DNA from: a virus
Lineage: Duplodnaviria > Heunggongvirae > Uroviricota > Caudoviricetes
IMG/VR virus record: IMGVR_UViG_2563366874_000012
Reading direction: 5' to 3' (one strand)
Length of the DNA: 50,800 nucleotides
Shown: piece after piece, positions 18,055 through 44,577 of the stretch
Layout of the letters: every line of letters starts with the position of its first letter
Numbering within the stretch: the first letter of the stretch is position 1
Notes under the pieces: model-generated
What the model was told of the DNA's origin: nothing
Database searches by the model: none
Seen by the model: the letters and a program-made list of their open reading frames with translations, nothing else
Made by a program: the position numbers and the translations under genes

Positions 18055-18960
18055 CTATATTTCCAGACATCTGTTATCACTTAACCCATTACAAGCCCGC
18101 TGCCGCAGATATTCCCGTGGCGAGCGATAACCCAGCGCACTATGCGGATGCCATTCGTTATAATGCTCGAACGCCTCTGCAAGGTTCTTTGCTGCCGTTA
18201 ACCCGTCTGGTTTGGGCATGATACTGATGTAGTCACGCTTTATCGTTTTCACGAAGCTCTCTGCTATTCCGTTACTCTCCGGACTCCGCACCGCCGTGTT
18301 CTTCGGTTCAAGTCCCAACATCCGGGCGAACTGGCGTGTTTCATTAGCCCGGTAGCATGAACCATTATCCGTCAGCCACTCCACTGGAGACGACGGAAGA
18401 TCGTTGCCGAAGCGGCGTTCCACCGCTCCCAGCATGACGTCCTGTACTGTTTCACTGTTGAAGCCGCCGGTAGTGACCGCCCAGTGCAGTGCCTCACGAT
18501 CACAGCAGTCCAGCGCGAACGTGACACGCAGTCTCTCTCCGTTATCACAGCAGAACTCGAACCCGTCAGAGCACCATCGCTGATTGCTTTCTTTCACGGC
18601 CACTCTGCCTGTATGTGCCCGTTTCGATGGCGGTACAGCAGGTTTTCGCTCAAGCAACAGCGCATTCTGGCGCATGATCCGGTAAACACGTTTGGCATTG
18701 ATCGCAGGCATACCATCAAGTTCTGCCTGTCTGCGAAGCAGCGCCCATACCCGACGATAACCATACGTTGGCAGCTCTCCGATAACATGGTGTATACGGA
18801 GAAGCACATCCGTATCATCAGTGTGACGACTGCGGCGGCCATCCATCCAGTCATCGGTTCGTCTGAGAATGACGTGCAACTGCGCACGCGACACCCGGAG
18901 ACAACGGCTGACTAAGCTTACTCCCCATCCCCGGGCAATAAGGGCGCGTGCGCTATCCAC
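18055..18960 (-). CDS. insD: IS2 transposase OrfB (InsD)
   Basis: 301-aa [49 protein letters not shown]... with DDE integrase-type core. Confidence 0.9.
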
Positions 18961-19283
18961 TTTTTTGCCCGTCCATATTCAACGGCTTCTTTGAGGAGTT
19001 CATTTTCCATCGTTTTCTTGCCGAGCAGGCGCTGGAGTTCTTTAATCTGCTTCATGGCGGCAGCAAGTTCAGAGGCAGGAACAACCTGTTCTCCGGCGGC
19101 GACAGCAGTAAGACTTCCTTCCTGGTATTGCTTACGCCAGAGAAATAACTGGCTGGCTGCTACACCATGTTGCCGGGCAACGAGGGAGACCGTCATCCCC
19201 GGTTCAAAGCTCTGCTGAACAATTGCGATCTTTTCCTGTGTGGTACGCCGTCTGCGTTTCTCCGGCCCTAAGACATCAATCAT
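18918..19283 (-). CDS. insC: IS2 OrfA (InsC) HTH protein
   Basis: 121-aa [59 protein letters not shown]... Confidence 0.9.
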
Positions 19284-19512
19284 CTGTTCTCCAATGACTA
19301 GTCTAAAAACTAGTATTAAGACTATCACTTATTTAAGTGATATTGGTTGTCTGGAGATTCAGGGGGCCAGTCTAGCGCTTGAGTATGTCGGATGGCCTAA
19401 ATCACTTTCTGTTGCCATTGGTGGTGGGGTGGGGCTGATTGGTGTTGATGCTATTCGTGGTGCGGCAATGAGGGTCATCGGTAACAAGTTCGGTGCCCAT
19501 AAGGAGTAATTA

Positions 19513-32079: not shown

Positions 32080-32460
32080 ATGGCAAAGGCATGGGATATA
32101 GAACCGTCAATATTTGCCGGGATGATTGAGGAAGATGTAGGGCTGAAGATTCGCTACATCGCTATTCAGATTCTTACTGCTATTGATATTGCTGCTCCGG
32201 TTGATACCGGACGTTTCAGAAATAACAACCTGGTGTCGTTACAGCATCCCGATTTTGGTATATCTGATAACGTGGATCCGAACGGTACGATTGCTGTTCA
32301 GCGTGGGATCGGGGTTATTTCGAAAGCTGCAAATTACGGGGTTATTTATATCCAGAATAACCTTCCTTATGCAGAGGCTCTTGAAAACGGTCATTCACAA
32401 CAAGCGCCAACTGGCGTGTATGCCAACGCTTTTCATGGTGTTTTACAGGCTTACAAATGA
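32080..32460 (+). CDS. Tail completion / head-tail adaptor protein
   Basis: 126-aa ORF in the head-tail joining cluster. Confidence 0.5.
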   Translation: MAKAWDIEPSIFAGMIEEDVGLKIRYIAIQILTAIDIAAPVDTGRFRNNNLVSLQHPDFGISDNVDPNGTIAVQRGIGVISKAANYGVIYIQNNLPYAEALENGHSQQAPTGVYANAFHGVLQAYK

Positions 32461-32849
32461 AGTTTACTGAAATCAGAAATACGGTTATTTCCAGAATGAC
32501 GGCACAGACGATTATTGATGGAAAAGACGTATTGTATCCGAACGGGCCAACGTTCGATCCTTCCGGTAAGTTAATCTGGGCGCGGTTAAGTAATATTCCC
32601 GGGCAAGCTGGAGTTAATGAAATTGGCGCGGGGCCGGTTGTTTATCGCACGGGGATAATCATTATTCAGTTATTTGTCCCCGCAGGTTCTGGTTCAAAAC
32701 TCATTACTGAGACAGCCGATAAATTGCGGGAACTGTTTGAGTTTCAGGATGACGATCGTCTCAGTTACCAGGCTGTTTCCTCAATAGCCGTCGGCGAAAA
32801 GAATGGCTGGTTCCAGCTTAATCTTCAAATTCCATATCGCGCGCTCTAG
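32457..32849 (+). CDS. Tail terminator-type protein
   Basis: 130-aa ORF, ATGA overlap with upstream gene, immediately before the major tail gene. Confidence 0.5.
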   Translation: MKFTEIRNTVISRMTAQTIIDGKDVLYPNGPTFDPSGKLIWARLSNIPGQAGVNEIGAGPVVYRTGIIIIQLFVPAGSGSKLITETADKLRELFEFQDDDRLSYQAVSSIAVGEKNGWFQLNLQIPYRAL

Positions 32850-32875: not shown

Positions 32876-33838
32876 GTGAGTTCAGGTGCAAAGGTTATCT
32901 CGGCATTTATCCGGGAGACAGTTGCAGGCACTACGCCAGCAAGTGGTGACTGGAGTTTATTAAAACGCACAAGCTGGGGAGTAAAACCCACCCAGAATAA
33001 AGGCGAAAATAATGAGATTGGTGGCTCCCGGATGGCTCAGGGGGCGACGCCTGGCACTGTGGATGTCGGCGGTGATGTTGGTACCAAATTTCGCTGGGGT
33101 CAACATGATGATTTTCTTGCATCCTGTTTCGGCGCGGAATGGTCAGGCGATTCTCTGACAATGGGGAATGAGCGAATAACATTTTCTCTGGCGACCTATG
33201 CGTCCGATGTCGGAATTGCCTCTGTCGTCAGAGGAGCGCAGGTTGGCTCATGGAAAATGCAGATCCCTAACGACGGCGATATTACAGCGACCGTAACCTT
33301 TGCCGGGCTGGGCTGGGAATCAAAGGCCGATGATACGAATTTTATCAAAGGCGAACCTGTGGATAGTGCAGGAAAGTTACGCTATTCGTTTAAGGCGGTT
33401 TCAGCAGTAAGCCTGAATGGTGTTGCCGGAGGTAACGGTTTTTGTATCGACAGTTTTGATATTCAGTTCGATAACAAACTCCAGACACAGCGTTGTATCG
33501 GGACTGGCTCGCCTTATGCAGGAGCAAATATTCCGACTACTTTTACACCGTCCGGTACGGTGACGCTTTCATGGTCTAAAGCCGCGTGGGAAATCTGGAG
33601 TAAAACACTGACTGGAGAAACAGTTCCGTTCAGCTTCACGCTTTCGAATGGAGAGGGGGCATACACTTTCAGTTTCCCGAAGGTTCAGGTGTCAGGTGAA
33701 TGGCCTGATGGGGGTAATACTGACATTATCCAGGTTCAATTGAGCATTACCGCAGCAGATGAAGCACCTACGATAACCAGAAAAAAATGCTCCCCGACTG
33801 CCGTGATCGCAAAAGCCAGTGCTGATGCGATTAGTTGA
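32876..33838 (+). CDS. Major tail (tube) protein
   Basis: 320-aa Gly/Thr/Ser-rich ORF MSSGAKVISAFIRETVAGTTPASGDWSLLKRTSWG... upstream of the tail chaperone G/GT pair. Confidence 0.65.
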   Translation: MSSGAKVISAFIRETVAGTTPASGDWSLLKRTSWGVKPTQNKGENNEIGGSRMAQGATPGTVDVGGDVGTKFRWGQHDDFLASCFGAEWSGDSLTMGNERITFSLATYASDVGIASVVRGAQVGSWKMQIPNDGDITATVTFAGLGWESKADDTNFIKGEPVDSAGKLRYSFKAVSAVSLNGVAGGNGFCIDSFDIQFDNKLQTQRCIGTGSPYAGANIPTTFTPSGTVTLSWSKAAWEIWSKTLTGETVPFSFTLSNGEGAYTFSFPKVQVSGEWPDGGNTDIIQVQLSITAADEAPTITRKKCSPTAVIAKASADAIS

Positions 33839-33850
33839 TTTTCCGTTATT

Positions 33851-33877
33851 CCCCCTGTGGTACTGCACTACAGGGGG
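33851..33877 (+). repeat. Hairpin-forming inverted repeat after major tail gene
   Basis: CCCCCTGT-ggtactgcact-ACAGGGGG; no U-run, possibly an RNA stability element. Confidence 0.4.
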
Positions 33878-33898
33878 ACGCATTGAATGAGGTTATGG

Positions 33899-34348
33899 AT
33901 GTTTATTCTTAATCAGAAAATTATCATCGGTGGAGAACGCTGGTTTACGCCAATGAAGGACTTAAAACCTATAGACGGGTTAAAACTGTTGGTGGCAAGC
34001 AGCGATAACGATCAGTATCGCTCCCGTAATGCATTAATCCGTCGTCACATTGAGAAAATGGATGCCAGTTTGCACGTCGGAACGAAGGAGTTTGATATTT
34101 CAAAGGTTTCCGAGGTAGATTCTGTTGATGATTTACTCATTGATAATGCTGCTCGTTATCTGCTGAAAGACTGGAAAGGGGTTGGTGAACTGGTTAATGG
34201 TGCTGAGGTTGCACTGGAATATACGCCAGAACGAGGGATCGCGCTGCTTAAGCAGAATCCAGAGTTGTACTGGCAGATCCTTGCAGAAGCAGCCAGCATC
34301 GCCCAGGGTAAAGAGCAGCAGAAGCAGGATACGATAAAAAAGCCATAG
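33899..34348 (+). CDS. Tail assembly chaperone G
   Basis: About 150-aa ORF ending ...QQKQDTIKKP*; GAGG upstream of ATG 33899 (frame opens at 33887); slippery heptamer near its 3' end. Confidence 0.6.
   Translation: MFILNQKIIIGGERWFTPMKDLKPIDGLKLLVASSDNDQYRSRNALIRRHIEKMDASLHVGTKEFDISKVSEVDSVDDLLIDNAARYLLKDWKGVGELVNGAEVALEYTPERGIALLKQNPELYWQILAEAASIAQGKEQQKQDTIKKP
34336..34342 (+). other. Programmed -1 ribosomal frameshift slippery site A_AAA_AAG (G to GT)
   Basis: In the G frame the codons are AAA (34337-34339) and AAG (34340-34342), preceded by A34336; the -1 frame is open from 34312 through 34656. Confidence 0.6.
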
Positions 34349-34656
34349 CCGCCCAGCGGTGGTTATCGGAGTTCGGGGGAGAAAGGGGGGAAAAGGCAAG
34401 ATGGAAGCGAGAAAAACTCAGGTTGCCACCGATACCGGAACCAGAAATAGACCCGGTGCTTAAGGAATTGTTGTACGCCTATTCGGTAATATCCCGTGCC
34501 CGACGTTATGCTGGAATGACCGGGGTGCCTTTGCCTTTATCTCTGACAGAGATAAATGAATATTTAGCCACTCATCCGGTATTGATTGAGCGCGATGAGT
34601 TTGAAGCAGTGATCTTTGCACTGGATGACCAGTATTTTCAGGAGCAGTGTGTGTAG
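34342..34656 (+). CDS. T-extension of tail assembly chaperone (expressed as G-T fusion by -1 frameshift)
   Basis: -1 frame ORF ...PPIPEPEIDPVLKELLYAYSVISRARRYAGMTGVPLPLSLTEINEYLATHPVLIERDEF... lacking an independent ATG and SD. Confidence 0.55.
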   Translation, partial: AIAAQRWLSEFGGERGEKARWKREKLRLPPIPEPEIDPVLKELLYAYSVISRARRYAGMTGVPLPLSLTEINEYLATHPVLIERDEFEAVIFALDDQYFQEQCV

Positions 34657-34779
34657 TTGTTAATTACGTACACTCTGTTACAGAGATGTGATGGTGTCTT
34701 TAATTAAATCGATGATGCTCCTGGAGAAAAGCATTGCGTGGCCTCGTAATCGCTATATCTACTATTATGTCGCCTGAAA

Positions 34780-34799
34780 CCCACTTCGGTGGGCTTTTT
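34780..34799 (+). terminator. Terminator-like hairpin upstream of tape measure gene
   Basis: CCCAC-ttcg-GTGGG followed by CTTTTTGTTGT. Confidence 0.45.
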
Positions 34800-34819
34800 G
34801 TTGTCTGGAGTTTTAATAA

Positions 34820-37800
34820 ATGGCAGAGCAAACCTCGCGTCTCGCAATAATTATTGATAGCACTGGAGCAAAAAATAATGCTGACAATCTGACCTCCTCA
34901 TTAGTCAAAATGACGCAGGCCGGGGAAACTGCTGCAAATAGCGCAGGGAAAGTGACTAAGGCAACAGAAGATGAGAAGAACGCGCTCGCAAAATTAAAAG
35001 CAGCTATTGATCCAGTTGGTGCCGCAATTGATACTGTCGGTCGACGCTATTCTGAATTAAAGAAATTTTTCGATAAAGGGCTTATTGATAAAGAAGAATA
35101 TGAATTTCTTGTCCGTAAACTTAATGAAACCACAGAGGAATTGAGCGGGGTTGCGCAAGCGCAGAGAGAAGCCGAGAAGGCCGGAAAACTTGCTGCCGCC
35201 CAGCAGGAAGCGCAGACTCAGGCCTTTCAAAGAATGCTGGACAAGATCGACCCTCTGGCTGCGGCGCTAAGAAATCTTGAACAACAGCAGGATGAACTTA
35301 ATGCTGCGTTTGCATCCGGGAAAATAAATGGTTCTCAGTTTGAGAATTATAGCCGAAAAATACAGGAAACACGGCGAGAGCTTACCGGAGAGGCTCAGGC
35401 AGAGCGAGAAGCAGCAAAAGCGCATGATGAACAGGTTGCTGCTTTGCAACGTCTGATTGCTCAACTTGACCCTGTCGGAACTGCTTTTAATCGTCTGGTA
35501 GAACAACAGAAACAGCTCAATGAAGCAAAAGCTAAGGGGATGCTCTCTCCTGAAATGTATGAGGAACTTTCTGGAAAACTTCGTGCTATGCGGAGTGAGC
35601 TTGAGGTTACTCAATCTCAATTAAGCAAAACCGGAATGTCGGCAAAACAAACGGCTTTTGCTATGCGCATGTTGCCTGCACAAATGACGGATATTGTTGT
35701 TGGGTTGTCCACTGGTCAGTCGCCTTTTATGGTGTTAATGCAGCAGGGCGGCCAGCTAAAAGATATGTTCGGTGGGATTGGCCCGGCGATCAAAGGTGTT
35801 GGTTCTTATGTGCTGGGATTAATTAATCCTTTTACCCTGGCCGCAGCAGCCGTTGGCGTCTTAGGGCTGGCTTACTATAAAGGCTCTCAGGAGCAGGACG
35901 AATTTAATAAGTCTCTTATTCTTACCGGAAATCAGTTGGGGACAACCAGCGGGCAATTGGCCGATATAGTTCAACGTGCCGGGAATGCGGCTGATTCGAC
36001 AACTGGCGCTGCGGCGGCAGTATTAAACCAGCTTGTGCGTTCGGGAAAGGTAGCGAGCAGTTCGCTGGAGCAAGTGACGACAGCGATAGTAAAAACGAGC
36101 GAAGTAACAGGAATATCAACCGAACAACTGGTTAATGACTTCAATGAAATTGCAAAGGATCCTGTCAGTGCCATATCAAAACTTAATGATCAGTACCATT
36201 TTCTGACAATTGCGACTTATAACCAGATTAAGGCGCTACAGGATGAAGGGAACCAGCAGGAGGCCGCCCGCATTGCGACAGAAGCATACTCATCCTCAAT
36301 GATCCAGCGCACCAACCAGATTAAAGAAAATCTTGGTTATCTTGAGACTGCATGGAAAGCTGTCGCAGACTCCGCAAAATGGGCATGGGATTCCATGCTG
36401 GATATTGGCCGTGAGGCCTCCCTTGATCAAAAAATCTCAGATGTTCTCCGTCAAATTGATGAAATAGAAAAAAATACCCGACCCGGAGTTTTCGGGTTAG
36501 GTGGCATTGGAGATGGCGGAGCTCAAAATAAAAGGCTGGCACGATTAAAGCAGCAATTGGGCGTACTTCAAGCAGAAAAAATTGCTCAGGACGTACTAAA
36601 TTCATCAATAAACGATTACAACAAGCGACAACAGGAAGGAATTGAACTCAGACAGAGAGCAGATGCCTTTTCAAAACAATATCAGACCCGGGAGCAGCAG
36701 AGAGCTAGTGAACTTGCAAAACTGGAAAAACTAAAGAGTCAGTATTCAAAGGAAGAATATAATAATCTTATCGCTCAAATAAATGAGCGTTATAAAGATC
36801 CAAAGCAACCAAAGGCGAAAGGTTATTCGGATGATGCTGCCCAACGAATGATTGATCATCTGAATCAACAGAATGCGTTACTAAGTTCACAAACTGAATT
36901 AACCGTTAAATTAAGTTCCTCTGAACAGGAACTGGTTAAGTGGCGTCAGCAGATTGCCGACCTGGAGTCACGACCGTCATCGAAATTAACCAAGGATCAG
37001 AAATCGCTTCTCTTACACCGGGAAGAAATAACCGCGTTGATGGAGAAAAATGTTGCGATTGAAAAAAATAACAGGCTAATCAAGGAATCCGCCGAAATAG
37101 CTGCATGGCGTGATTCATTGCAGGCTTCGATTGATAATCGTCAACAGGGGTATGATATTCAGATTGCTGGTTATGGGGTTGGCGATAAAAATCAGCAACG
37201 CCAGCAGGAATTACTGCGGATTGAACGTGAATATAACAATCAGCGTCTGCAACTTGAACGTGACTATGCAGATAAATCCCGTGGGATGTCAAATCATGTT
37301 TTTCAGGAGAAAATGCAGGCTCTGAATGATGCTCTGGAACGAGAAAAAGAAATTGTCAGACAGAAAAACGAGCAGCTCGATATTCAGGCAGGAGACTGGG
37401 TTAGTGGTGCCTCCCAGGGATTCAATAACTGGCTGGATGACACTAAGGATATCAGTGAGCAGATAAAATCAACCACGACTCAGATGTTTGATGGAATGAC
37501 CGATGCGCTGGGTGATTTTGTCACGACAGGCAAAGCAAATTTTCGTTCTTTCGCTACTTCCGTGATTTCGGATCTTAGTCGAATAGCATTAAAGGCTTCA
37601 ATTACTGGGATTTTCGACAGCATTAGTAACAGTTCTTCTGGGGGGATTTTAGGAACTATCGGGAGTGCTATTAGTAAATTTATTCCGAATGCAAAGGGCG
37701 GTGTTTATGAGTCTCCGTCATTGAACACGTATTCGAACGGTATTTATGATTCCCCGCAATTTTTTGCTTTTGCAAGAGGGGCTGGTGTTTTTGGTGAGGC

Positions 37801-38053
37801 TGGTCCGGAAGCCATTATGCCATTAACACGAACTTCCGATGGTTCTCTTGGTGTCAGAGCTGTTAATAGTAAAAGTGGTAATGGAGGCGGAGATATTACC
37901 TATGCCCCTGTATACCAAATCACTATTCAAAATGACGGCCAGAATGGAGAGATTGGCCCTCAGGCAATAAAAGCACTTATGGGGATGGTTGATCAGCGGG
38001 TGCAGGGCAATCTGTTAAATATGCGACGTGATGGGGGAATGTTAAGTGGCTAA
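34820..38053 (+). CDS. Tail tape measure protein
   Basis: 1077-aa ORF, N-terminal coiled-coil-rich region, following G/GT; corresponds to Rac tmpR position. Confidence 0.85.
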
Positions 38054-38384
38054 TACGGAAGAATTTCACTGGTTACCAGAGGATGGAATGAAAACAGAAA
38101 ATAAACCATCGATAAAAACTGTAAGATTTGGCGATGGTTATGAGCAACGAAGTCCAAATGGACTTAATCATTCTCTGCGCGTTTTCACCTGTGATTTCAA
38201 AGTTGAGGCGAATGAACGTGATTCATTTGAAAAATTTTTAGCCCGGCATGAAGGCTATAAATCTTTTTTTTGGCGCCCGCCGGGTATTAACAGAAAAATC
38301 AGAGTGGTGTGTCGAACGTGGTCAGCGACAGAACATATCACCTATACCGATTTTTCGTGTCAGTTTGACGAAGTGGTGATCTGA
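38046..38384 (+). CDS. Minor tail protein M
   Basis: 112-aa ORF (GTG start) ...[35 protein letters not shown]... aligning by eye with lambda gpM. Confidence 0.75.
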
Positions 38385-39082
38385 TGCAGGACATACAACA
38401 GGAAACGCTGAATGAATGCATTCGTGCGGAGCAGTCGGCCAGCGTGGTGCTCTGGGAAATCGACCTGACCGAGGTAGGCGGGGATCGCTACTTTTTCTGT
38501 AATGAGCAGAACGAAAAAGGTGAGTCTGTCACCTGGCAGAGTCGGCAGTATCAGGCCTATCCCATTCAGGGGAGTGGATTTGAGATGAACGGCAAGGGCA
38601 GTGCTGCCCGTCCGACACTGGCGGTCTCTAACCTGCACGGCATGATCACCGGGATGGCGGAAGATCTGCAGAGTCTGGTCGGCGGAACGGTGGTCCGGCG
38701 TAAGGTTTACGCCCGCTTTCTGGATGCGGTGAACTTCGTCAACGGAAACAGCGAAGCCGATCCGGAGCAGGAGGTGATCAGCCGCTGGCGCATCGAGCAG
38801 TGCAGCGAACTGAGCGCGGTCAGTGCCTCTTTTGTACTGTCCACGCCGACTGAAACGGATGGCGCTGTTTTTCCGGGACGTATCATGCTGGCCAACACCT
38901 GCACCTGGACCTATCGCGGCGATGAGTGCGGTTATAGCGGTCCGGCGGTCGCGGATGAATATGACCAGCCGACGTCCGATATCACGAAGGATAAATGCAG
39001 CAAATGCCTGAGTGGCTGTAAGTTTCGCAATAATGTCGGCAACTTTGGCAGCTTCCTTTCCATTAACAAACTTTCGCAGTAA
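38384..39082 (+). CDS. Minor tail protein L
   Basis: 232-aa ORF with C-terminal Cys cluster (CTWTYRGDECGYSG...CSKCLSGCKF) as in lambda gpL. Confidence 0.8.
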   Translation: MQDIQQETLNECIRAEQSASVVLWEIDLTEVGGDRYFFCNEQNEKGESVTWQSRQYQAYPIQGSGFEMNGKGSAARPTLAVSNLHGMITGMAEDLQSLVGGTVVRRKVYARFLDAVNFVNGNSEADPEQEVISRWRIEQCSELSAVSASFVLSTPTETDGAVFPGRIMLANTCTWTYRGDECGYSGPAVADEYDQPTSDITKDKCSKCLSGCKFRNNVGNFGSFLSINKLSQ

Positions 39083-39087
39083 ATCCC

Positions 39088-39831
39088 ATGACAGAGACAG
39101 AATCAGCGATTCTGGCGCACGCCCGGCGATGTGCGCCAGCGGAGTCGTGCGGCTTCGTGGTGAGAACGCCGGAGGAGGAAAGATATTTTCCCTGCGTGAA
39201 TATCTCCGGTGAGCCGGAGGAGTATTTCCGGATGTCGCCGGAGGACTGGCTGAGTGCAGAAATGCAGGGAGAGATTGTGGCGCTGGTCCACAGCCACCCC
39301 GGTGGTCTGCCCTGGCTGAGTGAGGCCGACCGGCGGCTGCAGGTACAGAGTGATTTGCCGTGGTGGCTGGTCTGCCGGGGGGCGATTCATAAATTCCGCT
39401 GTGTGCCGCATCTCACCGGGCGGCGCTTTGAGCACGGGGTAACGGACTGTTACACGCTGTTCCGGGACGCTTACCATCTGGCGGGAATTGAGATGCCGGA
39501 TTTTCATCGCGGGGATGACTGGTGGCGTAACGGTCAGAATCTCTATCTGGATAATCTGGAGGCCACAGGGCTGTATCAGGTGCCGTTGTCAGCGGCGCAG
39601 CCGGGCGATGTGCTGCTGTGCTGTTTTGGTTCATCGGTGCCGAATCATGCCGCCATTTACTGTGGTGACAGCGAGCTGCTGCACCATATTCCTGAACAAC
39701 TGAGCAAACGAGAGAGGTACACCGACAAATGGCAGCGACGCACACACTCCCTCTGGCGTCACCGGGCATGGCACGCATCTGCCTTTACGGGGATTTACAA
39801 CGATTTGGCCGCCGCATCGACCTTCGAGTGA
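39088..39831 (+). CDS. Tail assembly protein K (MPN/JAB plus NlpC/P60-type)
   Basis: 247-aa ORF with HSHPGG motif; lambda gpK-like; 3' end overlaps I by about 100 nt. Confidence 0.8.
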   Translation: MTETESAILAHARRCAPAESCGFVVRTPEEERYFPCVNISGEPEEYFRMSPEDWLSAEMQGEIVALVHSHPGGLPWLSEADRRLQVQSDLPWWLVCRGAIHKFRCVPHLTGRRFEHGVTDCYTLFRDAYHLAGIEMPDFHRGDDWWRNGQNLYLDNLEATGLYQVPLSAAQPGDVLLCCFGSSVPNHAAIYCGDSELLHHIPEQLSKRERYTDKWQRRTHSLWRHRAWHASAFTGIYNDLAAASTFE

Positions 39832-40370
39832 AAACGGGGTCCGAAGCCATCCGGGCGCTGGCCATGCAGATCCCGGCATTTCGTCAGAAACTGAGCGACG
39901 GCTGGTACCAGGTACGCATTGCCGGGCGTGATGCAGGTGAAACCGAATTGTCTGCCCGTCTTAATGAGCCGCTGGAAAATGGTGCCGTGATCCATATCGT
40001 GCCGCGTCTGGCAGGAGCCAAAAGTGGCGGTGTGTTTCAGGCTGTGCTGGGGGCGGCTGTTATGGCGGTTGCTATATGGATGCCGGGGGTAGGAATTATG
40101 GCGAGTAATCTGCTGTTTTCTCTCGGTGCCAGTATGACGCTTGGCGGTGTTGCACAGATGCTGGCCCCTAAACCCAAAACCCCCCGCACACAGACAACGG
40201 ATAACGGCAAACAGAACACCTATTTTTCTTCACTGGATAACATGGTTGCCCAGGGCAATGTTCTGCCGGTTCTGTACGGTGAAATGCGCGTGGGGTCACG
40301 CGTGGTTTCTCAGGAGATCAGCACGGCAGACGAAGGGGATGGTGGTCAGGTTGTGGTGATTGGTCGCTGA
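39729..40370 (+). CDS. Tail assembly protein I
   Basis: 213-aa ORF MAATHTLPLASPGMARICLYGDLQRFGRRIDLRVKTG... matching recalled lambda gpI N- and C-termini. Confidence 0.75.
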   Translation: MAATHTLPLASPGMARICLYGDLQRFGRRIDLRVKTGSEAIRALAMQIPAFRQKLSDGWYQVRIAGRDAGETELSARLNEPLENGAVIHIVPRLAGAKSGGVFQAVLGAAVMAVAIWMPGVGIMASNLLFSLGASMTLGGVAQMLAPKPKTPRTQTTDNGKQNTYFSSLDNMVAQGNVLPVLYGEMRVGSRVVSQEISTADEGDGGQVVVIGR

Positions 40371-40430: not shown

Positions 40431-43400
40431 ATGGGTAAAGGCAGCAGTAAGGGGCATACCCCGCGCGAAGCGAAGGACAACCTGAAGTCCACGCAGCTGC
40501 TGAGTGTGATCGATGCCATCAGCGAAGGGCCGGTTGAAGGTCCGGTGGATGGATTAAAAAGCGTGCTGCTGAACAGTACGCCGGTGCTGGACAGTGAGGG
40601 GAATACCAATATATCCGGCGTCACGGTGGTGTTCCGGGCCGGTGAGCAGGAGCAGACACCGCCGGAGGGATTTGAATCCTCCGGCTCCGAGACGGTGCTG
40701 GGTACGGAAGTGAAGTACGACACGCCGATTACCCGGACCATCACGTCGGCAAACATCGACCGTCTGCGCTTTACCTTCGGTGTGCAGGCACTGGTGGAAA
40801 CCACCTCAAAGGGGGACCGGAATCCGTCGGAAGTCCGCCTGCTGGTTCAGATACAGCGTAATGGTGGCTGGGTGACGGAAAAAGACATCACCATTAAAGG
40901 CAAAACCACCTCACAGTATCTAACATCGGTGGTGGTGGGTGACCTGCCGCCGCGCCCGTTCAATATCCGGATGCGCAGGATGACGCCGGACAGCACCACA
41001 GACCAGCTGCAGAACAAAACGCTCTGGTCGTCATACACCGAAATCATCGATGTGAAACAGTGCTACCCGAACACGGCACTGGTCGGCGTACAGGTGGATT
41101 CGGAGCAGTTCGGCAGCCAGCAGGTGAGCCGTAATTATCATCTGCGCGGGCGTATTCTGCAGGTGCCGTCGAACTATAACCCGCAGACTCGGCAATACAG
41201 CGGTATCTGGGACGGAACGTTTAAGCCAGCATACAGCAATAACATGGCCTGGTGTCTGTGGGATATGCTGACCCATCCACGCTACGGCATGGGGAAACGT
41301 CTTGGTGCGGCGGATGTGGACAAATGGGCGCTGTATGTCATCGGCCAGTACTGCGACCAGTCAGTGCCGGACGGCTTTGGCGGCACGGAGCCGCGCATCA
41401 CCTGTAATGCGTACCTGACCACACAGCGCAAGGCGTGGGATGTGCTCAGTGATTTCTGCTCGGCGATGCGCTGTATGCCGGTATGGAACGGGCAGACGCT
41501 GACGTTCGTGCAGGACCGACCGTCGGATAAGGTGTGGACCTATAACCGCAGTAATGTGGTGATGCCGGATGATGGCGCGCCGTTCCGCTACAGCTTCAGC
41601 GCCCTGAAGGACCGCCATAATGCCGTTGAGGTGAACTGGATTGACCCGGATAACGGCTGGGAGACGGCGACAGAGCTTGTTGAAGATACGCAGGCCATTG
41701 CCCGTTACGGTCGTAACGTCACGAAGATGGATGCCTTTGGCTGTACCAGCCGGGGGCAGGCACACCGCGCCGGGCTGTGGCTGATTAAAACGGAGCTGCT
41801 GGAAACGCAGACCGTGGACTTCAGCGTGGGCGCAGAAGGGCTTCGCCATGTACCGGGCGATGTCATTGAAATCTGTGATGATGACTATGCGGGTATCAGC
41901 ATCGGCGGGCGCGTGCTGGCGGTGAACAGCCAGACGCGGACGCTGACGCTCGACCGTGAAATCACGCTGCCATCCTCCGGCATCACGCTGATAAGCCTGG
42001 TTGACGGACAGGGGAATCCGGTCAGCGTGGAGGTTCAGTCCGTCACCGACGGCGTGAAGGTAAAAGTGAGCCGTGTTCCTGGCGGTGTTGCTGAATACAG
42101 CGTATGGGGGCTGAAGCTGCCGACGCTGCGCCAGCGACTGTTCCGCTGCGTGAGTATCCGTGAGAACGACGACGGCACGTATGCCATCACCGCCGTGCAG
42201 CATGTGCCGGAGAAAGAGGCCATCGTGGATAACGGGGCGCACTTTGACGGCGACCAGAGCGGCACGGTGAATGGTGTCACGCCGCCAGCGGTGCAGCACC
42301 TGACCGCCGAAGTCACCGCAGACAGCGGGGAATATCAGGTGCTGGCGCGATGGGACACGCCGAAGGTGGTGAAGGGCGTGAGCTTTATGCTTCGTCTGAC
42401 CGTGGCAGCGGATGACGGCAGTGAGCGGCTGGTCAGCACGGCCAGGACGACGGAAACCACATACCGCTTCACGCAACTGGCGCTGGGAAACTACAGGCTG
42501 ACAGTCCGGGCGGCAAATGCCTGGGGGCAGCAGGGCGATCCGGCATCGGTATCGTTCCGGATTGCCGCACCGGCAGCGCCGTCGCGGATTGAGCTGACGC
42601 CGGGCTATTTTCAGATAACCGCCACGCCGTATCTTGCCGTTTATGATCCGACGGTACAGTTTGAGTTCTGGTTCTCGGAAAAGCGGATTGCGGATATCAG
42701 GCAGGTTGAAACCACAGCCCGCTATCTTGGCACGGCGCTGTACTGGATAGCTGCCAGTATCAATATCAAGCCGGGCCATGATTATTATTTTTACATCCGC
42801 AGTGTGAACACCGTTGGCAAATCGGCATTCGTGGAGGCTGTTGGCCAGCCGAGTGATGATGCATCCGGCTATCTGGATTTTTTCAAAGGAGAGATAGGGA
42901 AAACCCATCTGGCTCAGGAGTTGTGGACGCAGATTGATAACGGTCAGCTTGCGCCTGACCTGGCTGAAATCAGGACGTCCATTACGGATGTCAGTAATGA
43001 AATCACGCAGACCGTCAATAAGAAACTGGAAGACCAGAGTGCAGCGATCTAGCAGATACAGAAGGTTCAGGTTGATACAAATAATAACCTGAACAGCATG
43101 TAGGCTGTGAAGCTGCAGCAGATGCAGGACGGACGCCTTTATATCGCGGGTATTGGTGCCGGTATTGAGAACACCCCTGACGGCATGCAGAGTCAGGTGC
43201 TGCTGGCGGCAGACAGGATTGCGATGGTTAATCCTGCGAATGGCAACACAAAGCCGATGTTTGTTGGTCAGGGCGATCAGATATTCATGAACGAAGTGTT
43301 CCTGAAATATCTGACGGCTCCCACCATTACCAGCGGCGGTAATCCTCCGGCATTTTCCCTGACACCGGACGGGCGGCTGACGGCGAAAAATGCCGATATC

Positions 43401-43910
43401 AGCGGTAGCGTGAATGCGAACTCCGGGACGCTCAACAACGTCACGATTAACGAGAACTGTCGGGTTCTGGGAAAACTGTCCGCGAACCAGATTGAAGGCG
43501 ATCTCGTTAAAACAGTGGGCAAAGCTTTCCCCCGGGACTCCCGTGCACCGGAGCGGTGGCCATCAGGGACCATTACCGTCAGGATTTATGACGATCAGCC
43601 GTTTGACCGGCAGATTGTTATTCCAGCGGTGGCATTCAGCGGTGCCAGACATGAACGGGAGAATAGCGATACTTATTCGTCATGCCGCCTGATAGTGAAG
43701 AAAAACGGGGCTGAAATTTATAACCGAACGGCGCTGGATAATACGCTGATTTACAGTGGCGTTATTGATATGCCTGCCGGTCACGGTCACATGACGCTGG
43801 AGTTTTCGGTGTCAGCATGGCTGGTAAATGACTGGTATCCCACAGCAAGTATCAGCGATTTGCTGGTTGTGGTGATGAAGAAAGCCACCGCAGGCATCAG
43901 TATCAGCTGA
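40431..43910 (+). pseudogene. Host specificity / central tail fibre protein J interrupted by two in-frame TAG codons
   Basis: One reading frame: 873 codons, TAG (43050-43052), 16 sense codons (QIQKVQVDTNNNLNSM), TAG (43101-43103), then 269 further codons [23 protein letters not shown]...; the track's downstream ORF starts at GTG 43107 with no SD. Confidence 0.8.
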
Positions 43911-43977: not shown

Positions 43978-44577
43978 ATGCGTAAATTATGTGCTGTTAT
44001 TCTGTCCGCAGTAGTCTGGCTGGTTGCCGCTGGTACGCCAGCGAGCGCAGCAGAGCATCAGTCCACACTAAGCGCCGGGTATCTTCAGACCCATACTGAT
44101 ATGCCCGGCAACGATGACCTGAAGGGCATTAACGTGAAATACCGTTATGAATTTACGGACACGCTGGGGCTGGTGACGTCATTCAGTTATGCCAATGCCA
44201 AAGATGAGCAAAAAACGCATTACAGCGATACCCGCTGGCATGAAGATTCAGTGCGTAACCGCTGGTTCAGCATGATGGCGGGGCCGTCTGTACGCGTGAA
44301 TGAATGGTTCAGTGCTTATGCGATGGCAGGTGTGGCTTACAGCCGTGTTTCAACGTTCTCCGGGGATTATCTCCGCGTAACTGACAGCAAGGGGAAAACG
44401 CACGATGTGCTGACCGGAAGTGATGACGGTCGCCACAGCAACACGTCTCTGGCGTGGGGGGCTGGCGTGCAGTTTAACCCGACCGAATCCGTGGCCATTG
44501 ATATTGCTTATGAAGGCTCCGGCAGTGGTGACTGGCGCACTGACGGTTTCATCGTGGGTGTCGGTTATAAATTCTGA
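43978..44577 (+). CDS. lom: Lom-like outer membrane protein (Ail/Lom family), intact
   Basis: 199-aa ORF with signal peptide MRKLCAVILSAVVWLVAAGTPASA and C-terminal beta-barrel signature ...GFIVGVGYKF; flanked by terminators on both sides. Confidence 0.8.
   Translation: MRKLCAVILSAVVWLVAAGTPASAAEHQSTLSAGYLQTHTDMPGNDDLKGINVKYRYEFTDTLGLVTSFSYANAKDEQKTHYSDTRWHEDSVRNRWFSMMAGPSVRVNEWFSAYAMAGVAYSRVSTFSGDYLRVTDSKGKTHDVLTGSDDGRHSNTSLAWGAGVQFNPTESVAIDIAYEGSGSGDWRTDGFIVGVGYKF

Follow-up and report, generated by a model that had tools for sequence, protein, structure and literature searches.

The G/GT -1 frameshift of long-tailed phages is a described class of recoding (Levin, Hendrix & Casjens 1993; Xu, Hendrix & Duda 2004, 2013, 2014; reviewed in PMC5009743). 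In phage lambda, G forms a coat on the tape-measure protein while T brings in the tube protein, with G and GT present at a ratio of about 30:1 and neither found in the virion (PMC5009743). Here we analysed a 50,800-nucleotide stretch of viral DNA (Caudoviricetes; IMG/VR record IMGVR_UViG_2563366874_000012), hereafter the window, in which a YdaY-family tail assembly chaperone gene (G) and an extension in its -1 frame (T) together occupy positions 33899-34656 of the plus strand. We propose that this locus, part of a Rac-type lambdoid prophage, very probably expresses its tail assembly chaperone gene by programmed -1 ribosomal frameshifting. An earlier, sequence-only reading of the window had already called it G/GT recoding, and that reading is supported by the position of the locus in the tail module, an in-register slippery site, an extension without a start codon, conservation, a switch in codon phase, and a GT that is colinear with both the GT of phage TRS1 and PHROG 313.

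Comparison with described frameshift systems

The window shares with lambda the gene order tube, G, T and tape measure, an identically registered heptamer close to the 3' end of G, and a -1 extension lacking a start of its own, and in neither is a conserved stimulatory structure evident. The two differ in their dimensions: lambda (J02459) has G_GGA_AAG 15 nt before the G stop and an extension of 144 codons, whereas the window has A_AAA_AAG one codon before the stop and an extension of 104 codons. They also differ in what follows, as lambda T overlaps the tape-measure gene whilst the T of the window is kept apart from it by a 163-nt spacer containing a terminator-like hairpin. The lambda heptamer, GGGAAAG, is also used by nine relatives of the window locus. 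From its sequence, the locus is best described as an analogue that would work like lambda G/GT and lies outside the lambda protein families.

A tblastn search of GenBank phages with the conceptual GT revealed distant relatives in Klebsiella, Erwinia, Pseudomonas and Acinetobacter phages. In Acinetobacter phage vB_AbaS_TRS1 (gp18/gp19, NC_031098), the chaperone is annotated as a joined, frameshifted coding sequence, an annotation present in none of the Escherichia records inspected. The TRS1 GT is a true distant homologue of the window GT: BLASTP aligned the two in a single high-scoring segment pair spanning the junction (166 aa at 31% identity, E 4e-19), where …DTIKK|AIAAQ… in the window faces …DIVGK|VTNLY… in TRS1, and the T motifs AY..I.R.RRY and IFALDD are common to both. 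The TRS1 site is an in-register G_GGA_AAG located 78 nt before the 0-frame stop, and its -1 open reading frame (ORF) ends exactly where the annotated product ends.

The heptamer itself has precedents. ECs1801 of the lambdoid prophage Sp9 in the Sakai strain (E. coli O157:H7) is a chaperone gene, flanked by the major tail and tape-measure genes, whose extreme 3' end carries the same A_AAA_AAG in register, and its cluster (A_AAA_AAG_25) is the only A_AAA_AAG tail-chaperone cluster marked 'true' by Sharma et al. (2014, PMC4066793, Table S4). Unlike the window, ECs1801 encodes an unrelated protein (BLASTP E 0.7) and has its stop codon directly after the heptamer. The same A_AAA_AAG, with the same re-pairing of tRNA-Lys, is also used by dnaX and by the OrfAB of IS3-family elements; however, those sites use an upstream Shine-Dalgarno (SD) sequence and/or a downstream hairpin or pseudoknot and are 30-80% efficient, whereas no conserved stimulator was found at the G/GT site.

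The slippery site and its two reading frames

Gene G extends from 33899 to 34348 in the 0 frame and encodes 149 aa, as delimited by the ORF list, by PHROG 313 and by the starts of its homologues. Its start at ATG 33899 is plausible, with an SD-like GAGG at 33889-33892, 6 nt upstream, and homologues that begin at the equivalent position; an alternative ATG lies further upstream, at 33887. Reading of the sequence and a script both placed AAAAAAG at 34336-34342. The G-frame codons at the site are ACG, ATA (34334-34336), AAA (34337-34339), AAG (34340-34342), CCA and TAG (34346-34348), which gives the X_XXY_YYZ register that the sequence-only reading had claimed. The same reading had put 7 nt between the heptamer and the G stop, which is wrong: the stop begins 3 nt after the last base of the heptamer, a single CCA codon past it.

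The -1 frame, by sequence and by script, is open from 34312 to 34656, exactly as had been stated. Within it, the T extension covers 34342-34656, comprising 104 codons followed by the stop TAG at 34654-34656, and is supported by the script, by a match to PHROG 1189 and by codon periodicity. The earliest ATG, GTG or TTG in this frame is the TTG at 34423, which has no SD match in the 5-16 nt upstream. The claim that the downstream ORF has neither a start nor a ribosome-binding site of its own was thus upheld, both by this TTG and by the relatives described below.

According to the proposed mechanism, most ribosomes would translate G from 33899 to 34348 and terminate at the TAG at 34346, yielding the 149-aa chaperone. 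A small fraction would slip back by one base on A_AAA_AAG, where the single E. coli tRNA-Lys would re-pair from AAA-AAG to AAA-AAA, and would then read the -1 frame to 34656, yielding a 252-aa GT that shares its N-terminal 148 residues with G. Expressed as a join, GT corresponds to 33899-34342 followed by 34342-34653, with G34342 read twice. The first codon past the -1 slip is the GCC at 34342, the extension peptide reads AIAAQRWLSEFGGERGEK…FALDDQYFQEQCV, and the predicted junction peptide of GT is …QDTIKKAIAAQR (junction …DTIKKAIAAQR…). We infer both the occurrence of the slip and its rate. On the lambda model, the tape-measure protein would be coated by G together with the G portion of GT, whilst the T domain would recruit the tube protein (32876-33838); a fixed slip rate would set a high G:GT ratio, and neither protein would end up in the virion.

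Both frames are conserved across relatives

The heptamer is common in this DNA, AAAAAAG occurring 21 times in the window when both strands are counted. A loose geometric filter, retaining any in-register XXXYYYZ no more than 30 codons from a stop with a -1 frame that stays open for at least 50 codons past it, was passed by five sites in the window, the G/GT site included. Among the others, one is a real IS3 transposase site and the remaining three resemble ordinary gene junctions or alternative frames of real genes (two of these three were compared with the ORF list). Since the heptamer is common and five sites pass, geometry is weak evidence, and the case therefore rests on genomic context and on comparison with relatives.

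For the comparison, species-representative genomes supplied 24 loci and viral contigs a further 80. The 105-locus set spans 34-100% protein identity and more than 12 genera, and 21 diverse loci within the comparison (34-99% identity) represent 12 genera of Enterobacterales: Escherichia, Citrobacter, Raoultella, Siccibacter, Serratia, Pectobacterium, Tatumella, Rosenbergiella, Providencia, Dryocola, Scandinavium and Entomohabitans. At the same in-register position, 94 of the 105 loci have AAAAAAG, nine have GGGAAAG, one has GGGGAAG and one has CGCAAAG; the diverse loci are divided between AAAAAAG (11), GGGAAAG (9) and GGGGAAG (1, in Pectobacterium). Because many of the 94 AAAAAAG loci are near-identical, the number of independent lineages is closer to 21 than to 105.

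The -1 extension measures 104-118 codons in 20 of the 21 diverse loci and 91 codons in a decayed copy (L025). The 0-frame stop is variable, falling 0, 3, 21 or 75 nt past the heptamer in relatives, while the heptamer and the -1 ORF stay in place. No ATG, GTG or TTG occurs within the first 37 codons of the -1 frame in 14 of the 21 loci, and the few TTGs present elsewhere are not conserved.

Codon-position variability was assessed as column entropy in an ungapped alignment of 162 columns. Upstream of the heptamer, entropy is highest at 0-frame third positions (1.46 vs 0.81 and 0.52 at the other two), while downstream it is highest at -1-frame third positions (1.24-1.30 vs 0.62-0.75), and the heptamer marks the exact point at which variability passes from the 0-frame to the -1-frame phase. 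The -1-frame pattern already holds in the 81 nt ahead of the earliest possible T start codon in the window, and the -1-frame peptide right after the site is conserved as (A/V)(I/L)(A/E)AQKWL..(F/Y).G..GE(K/R)..W..E(K/R)L. These patterns show that, starting at the heptamer, the -1 frame is under purifying selection, and on such comparative evidence the G/GT site can be placed far beyond chance.

The alternation between AAAAAAG and GGGAAAG fits selection for slipperiness and not for one particular sequence. When assayed in E. coli with no stimulator, the IS911 stimulator or the IS3 stimulator, AAAAAAG shifts at 0.29, 4.3 and 39% and GGGAAAG at 0.28, 3.8 and 43%, respectively (Sharma et al. 2014, PMC4066793). 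Both heptamers are thus highly shift-prone in this host, with near-identical efficiencies (PMC4066793).

Several individual loci depart from these patterns. Erwinia phage Gungnir39 (L111, 1686) has C_GCA_AAG followed directly by TAA, at which only single-tRNA slippage on A_AAG is possible, and Pectobacterium odoriferum (L014, 2920) has G_GGG_AAG. Pseudomonas phage Aurca01 (L109, 32% identity) has a GGGAAAG that is out of register with its annotated G frame. Lastly, Providencia stuartii CP114582 (L113, around position 1770) has A7 in place of A6, generating a genomic in-frame G-T fusion (P0025, …TIKKVIEAQKWL…); its sequence suggests either a homopolymer sequencing error or a GT-only mutant. The 'fused' database proteins P0001, P0002 and P0025 were considered as independent evidence of recoding and rejected, as they are indel variants, P0025 being the A7-for-A6 case.

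Profile matches of G, T and GT

Searched alone, G aligns with positions 13-149 of the 258-position profile PHROG 313, 'tail assembly chaperone' (E 3e-46). For the conceptual GT, the match to this profile forms one continuous stretch, with residues 5-249 aligned to positions 20-246 (E 6e-51), and the fusion also matches PHROG 8233 across the junction. T matches PHROG 1189, a family of unknown function, at E 2e-36. Residues 31-99 of T additionally match PF23812 (Phage_TAC_18) with 20.3 bits and E 6e-4, under the 27-bit gathering threshold of that model; 7 of 19 relatives match PF23812 at E <= 0.01, none of them better than the 6e-4 of the window. Precomputed assignments to PF27119 (Phage_YdaY) are present on all G homologues at 55-99% identity, and the G of the window was placed in this family via those homologues. 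Searches of T against NCBIfam found nothing, and searches of the PDB with G/GT and with the T alignment gave no sequence match.

Alternative explanations

We considered whether T is instead an independent gene translated from its own start, at TTG 34423, GTG 34456 or TTG 34471, with the heptamer incidental. Separate short T ORFs are indeed annotated by both RefSeq and GenBank, and the stretch of T matched by PF23812 and PHROG 1189 comes shortly after TTG 34423. However, no SD precedes 34423, the three candidate starts differ by annotation pipeline, and the first 37 codons are startless in 14 of the 21 relatives. Moreover, conservation of the -1-frame protein, with variability at third positions, already covers the 27 codons from the heptamer to 34423, and the fused GT is colinear with PHROG 313 and with the GT of TRS1. 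We therefore regard an independent T start as very unlikely.

A second possibility is that GT arises through transcriptional slippage, RNA polymerase adding or dropping an A within the A6 run. The run lies at the site itself, and the genomic A7 of P. stuartii yields exactly the GT fusion that such an event would produce. Efficient transcriptional slippage in bacteria, though, needs runs of about 8-9 or more A or T residues, and the nine relatives with GGGAAAG have only three A residues, so that no polymerase slippage is possible there while ribosomal slipperiness is kept. The strict X_XXY_YYZ register is likewise a requirement of ribosomes and not of polymerase, leaving this explanation even less probable than an independent start.

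Least probable of all is a chance juxtaposition, or gene decay without recoding, an indel having split what was formerly a single G-T gene in a cryptic prophage: despite the 21 heptamer copies and five loosely filtered sites of the window, and despite the two TAG codons in J and the insertion sequence (IS) elsewhere in the prophage, the two-frame arrangement and slippery heptamer are kept in more than 100 loci and more than 12 genera while the 0-frame stop moves, with purifying selection in both frames on either side of the site.

Several observations nevertheless weigh against a programmed ribosomal frameshift of the G/GT type. Alignment with lambda G/GT, a check suggested in the sequence-only reading, gave it no support, as BLASTP of the window GT against lambda GT returned E 27, with no detectable similarity. 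G has no Pfam-A match at E <= 0.1 (in a Pfam set lacking PF27119), which rules out the lambda gpG family model, and no NCBIfam match. The AlphaFold2 model of G, built on a 24-sequence alignment, is of low confidence (mean pLDDT 47, pTM 0.34). Two relatives have the non-canonical sites G_GGG_AAG and C_GCA_AAG. No conserved stimulatory structure was found by RNAalifold across 19 sequences (-2.2 kcal/mol, with no compensatory pairs or covariation), nor was a correctly spaced upstream SD element, and the shift efficiency of a bare heptamer could be as low as about 0.3%. Finally, the tail module may no longer be functional in this prophage, in which case the recoding site would be intact but idle.

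Stimulatory signals and expected shift rate

No Rfam family matched the region 33600-35000. Downstream of the heptamer, the conserved columns all fall at first or second codon positions of the -1 frame. A candidate 4-bp AGCC/GGCU 'stem' was rejected on these grounds, as its columns are such first and second positions and show no compensatory changes. An AGGA at 34326-34329 was likewise rejected as a candidate SD-like stimulator, given its short distance from the heptamer (6 nt upstream), its origin in Gln-Asp/Glu codons and its absence from several clades.

Folding predicted a local hairpin of 9-11 bp directly 3' of the heptamer, at 34343-34369 (plus strand, -14.2 kcal/mol), whose base begins 0-2 nt past the heptamer. 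It scores z -3.6 as a 30-mer, but the 40-mer is unremarkable (z -0.84), and comparable post-heptamer hairpins are restricted to the Escherichia and Rosenbergiella/Tatumella clades and are not family-wide. The hairpin may stimulate shifting weakly and in a clade-specific manner, and we class the heptamer as bare or weakly stimulated, the terms in which the lambda G-T site is usually described. As no conserved stimulator was found, a low shift rate would be expected, from tenths of a percent to a few percent.

A further but improbable reading is that the G:GT ratio of YdaY-type loci is tuned clade by clade, the post-heptamer hairpin acting as a lineage-specific stimulator and the terminator-like hairpin in the downstream spacer setting the stoichiometry of chaperone to tape-measure protein. 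If true, such regulation would go beyond what has been described for lambda, whose T and H genes overlap.

That spacer covers the 163 nt from 34657 to 34819, between T and the tape-measure gene. The terminator-like hairpin occupies 34780-34793 (CCCAC-TTCG-GTGGG, then CTTTTTG), with a T-run reaching 34803, about 24-27 nt before the ATG at 34820. Five relatives (L015, L018, L019, L022 and L023) likewise have a GC hairpin with a U-run, 6-27 nt ahead of their next long ORF. In relatives the spacer ranges from 39 to more than 1,300 nt, with extra ORFs, and is hypervariable; from its sequence it looks like a moron slot. In the window, a 28-codon ORF (MVSLIKSMMLLEKSIAWPRNRYIYYYVA) at 34691-34777 on the plus strand lies just 5' of the terminator-like hairpin and is unannotated in K-12 and in other records.

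Annotation of the locus

In the RefSeq and GenBank records inspected, G is called 'YdaY' and T is either called 'hypothetical protein' or left uncalled, and in K-12 nothing is called. The prediction that default gene callers would split G/GT into two genes was therefore borne out, as 'YdaY' plus a 'hypothetical protein' with differing starts, or as nothing at all in K-12. The start assigned to T depends on the source, being GTG 34456 in RefSeq, TTG 34471 in GenBank phages and TTG 34423 in the mechanical ORF list, a disagreement that is expected if no real start exists. In the protein database, G accounts for at least 159 clusters and T for only 27, the latter with lengths from 60 to 138 aa.

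RefSeq models YdaY as a 119-aa protein starting at TTG 33989, even in intact prophages (L002, L003). This model copies the remnant of the K-12 Rac prophage, where a deletion at the ynaK junction has removed the 5' end of the gene. The start of G indicated by homologues and by the GAGG SD is instead ATG 33899.

A literature search found no description of a frameshift in ydaY or in the Rac prophage. Recognition of G/GT here gives YdaY a function and removes a spurious ORF, and its main value lies in correcting the annotation of a very common E. coli prophage gene (about 1,000 complete genomes). Prediction of frameshift sites also benefits, since the family is well sampled and its heptamers alternate between AAAAAAG and GGGAAAG. 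Biologically, the outcome is the expected one, in line with a textbook mechanism, at a site previously unannotated in the records inspected.

Genomic context

The G/T locus lies between the tube and tape-measure genes of a lambda-like siphovirus tail module. Upstream are the tail terminator (32457-32849, PF13554) and the tail tube, or major tail, protein (32876-33838, plus strand; PF18906 Phage_tube_2, E 2e-32). G and T (33899-34656) are followed by the tape-measure protein (34820-38053, plus strand; PF06791, PF09718, PF24622 and PHROG 24), then by M (38046-38384, PF05939), L (38384-39082, PF05100), K (39088-39831, Prok-JAB and NlpC/P60), I (39729-40370, PF06805), J (40431-43910, several J domains) and Lom (43978-44577, PF06316). 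The DNA is 98-100% identical to Rac-type prophages and E. coli ydaY loci, including the K-12 Rac prophage, and the segment was found in 1,074 of 5,426 complete E. coli genomes (the K-12 Rac remnant among them) and in ten GenBank phage records.

Two TAG codons, spaced 51 nt apart at 43050-43052 and 43101-43103, interrupt the reading frame of the tail tip gene J and correspond to CAG to TAG and TGG to TAG changes relative to the intact gpJ of NZ_AP022159. Over 42900-43250, no complete E. coli genome is more than 98.3% identical to the window. Further decay of the prophage is seen in an IS insertion. Judging from these sequences, the prophage is probably tail-defective or an amber mutant.

An IS3-family element occupies 18055-19328 on the minus strand, with overlapping orfA (19328-18918, HTH_Tnp_1) and orfB (18960-18055, rve integrase core). 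Its OrfAB carries an in-register A_AAA_AAG at 18966-18960 of the minus strand, a classical -1 frameshift and the second recoding site of the window with this heptamer. The tube stop and the G start are 60 nt apart, and a strong GC-rich 12-bp hairpin lies between them at 33850-33878 with no U-run after it; the 65-nt region around this hairpin folds at -24 kcal/mol (z -3.2).

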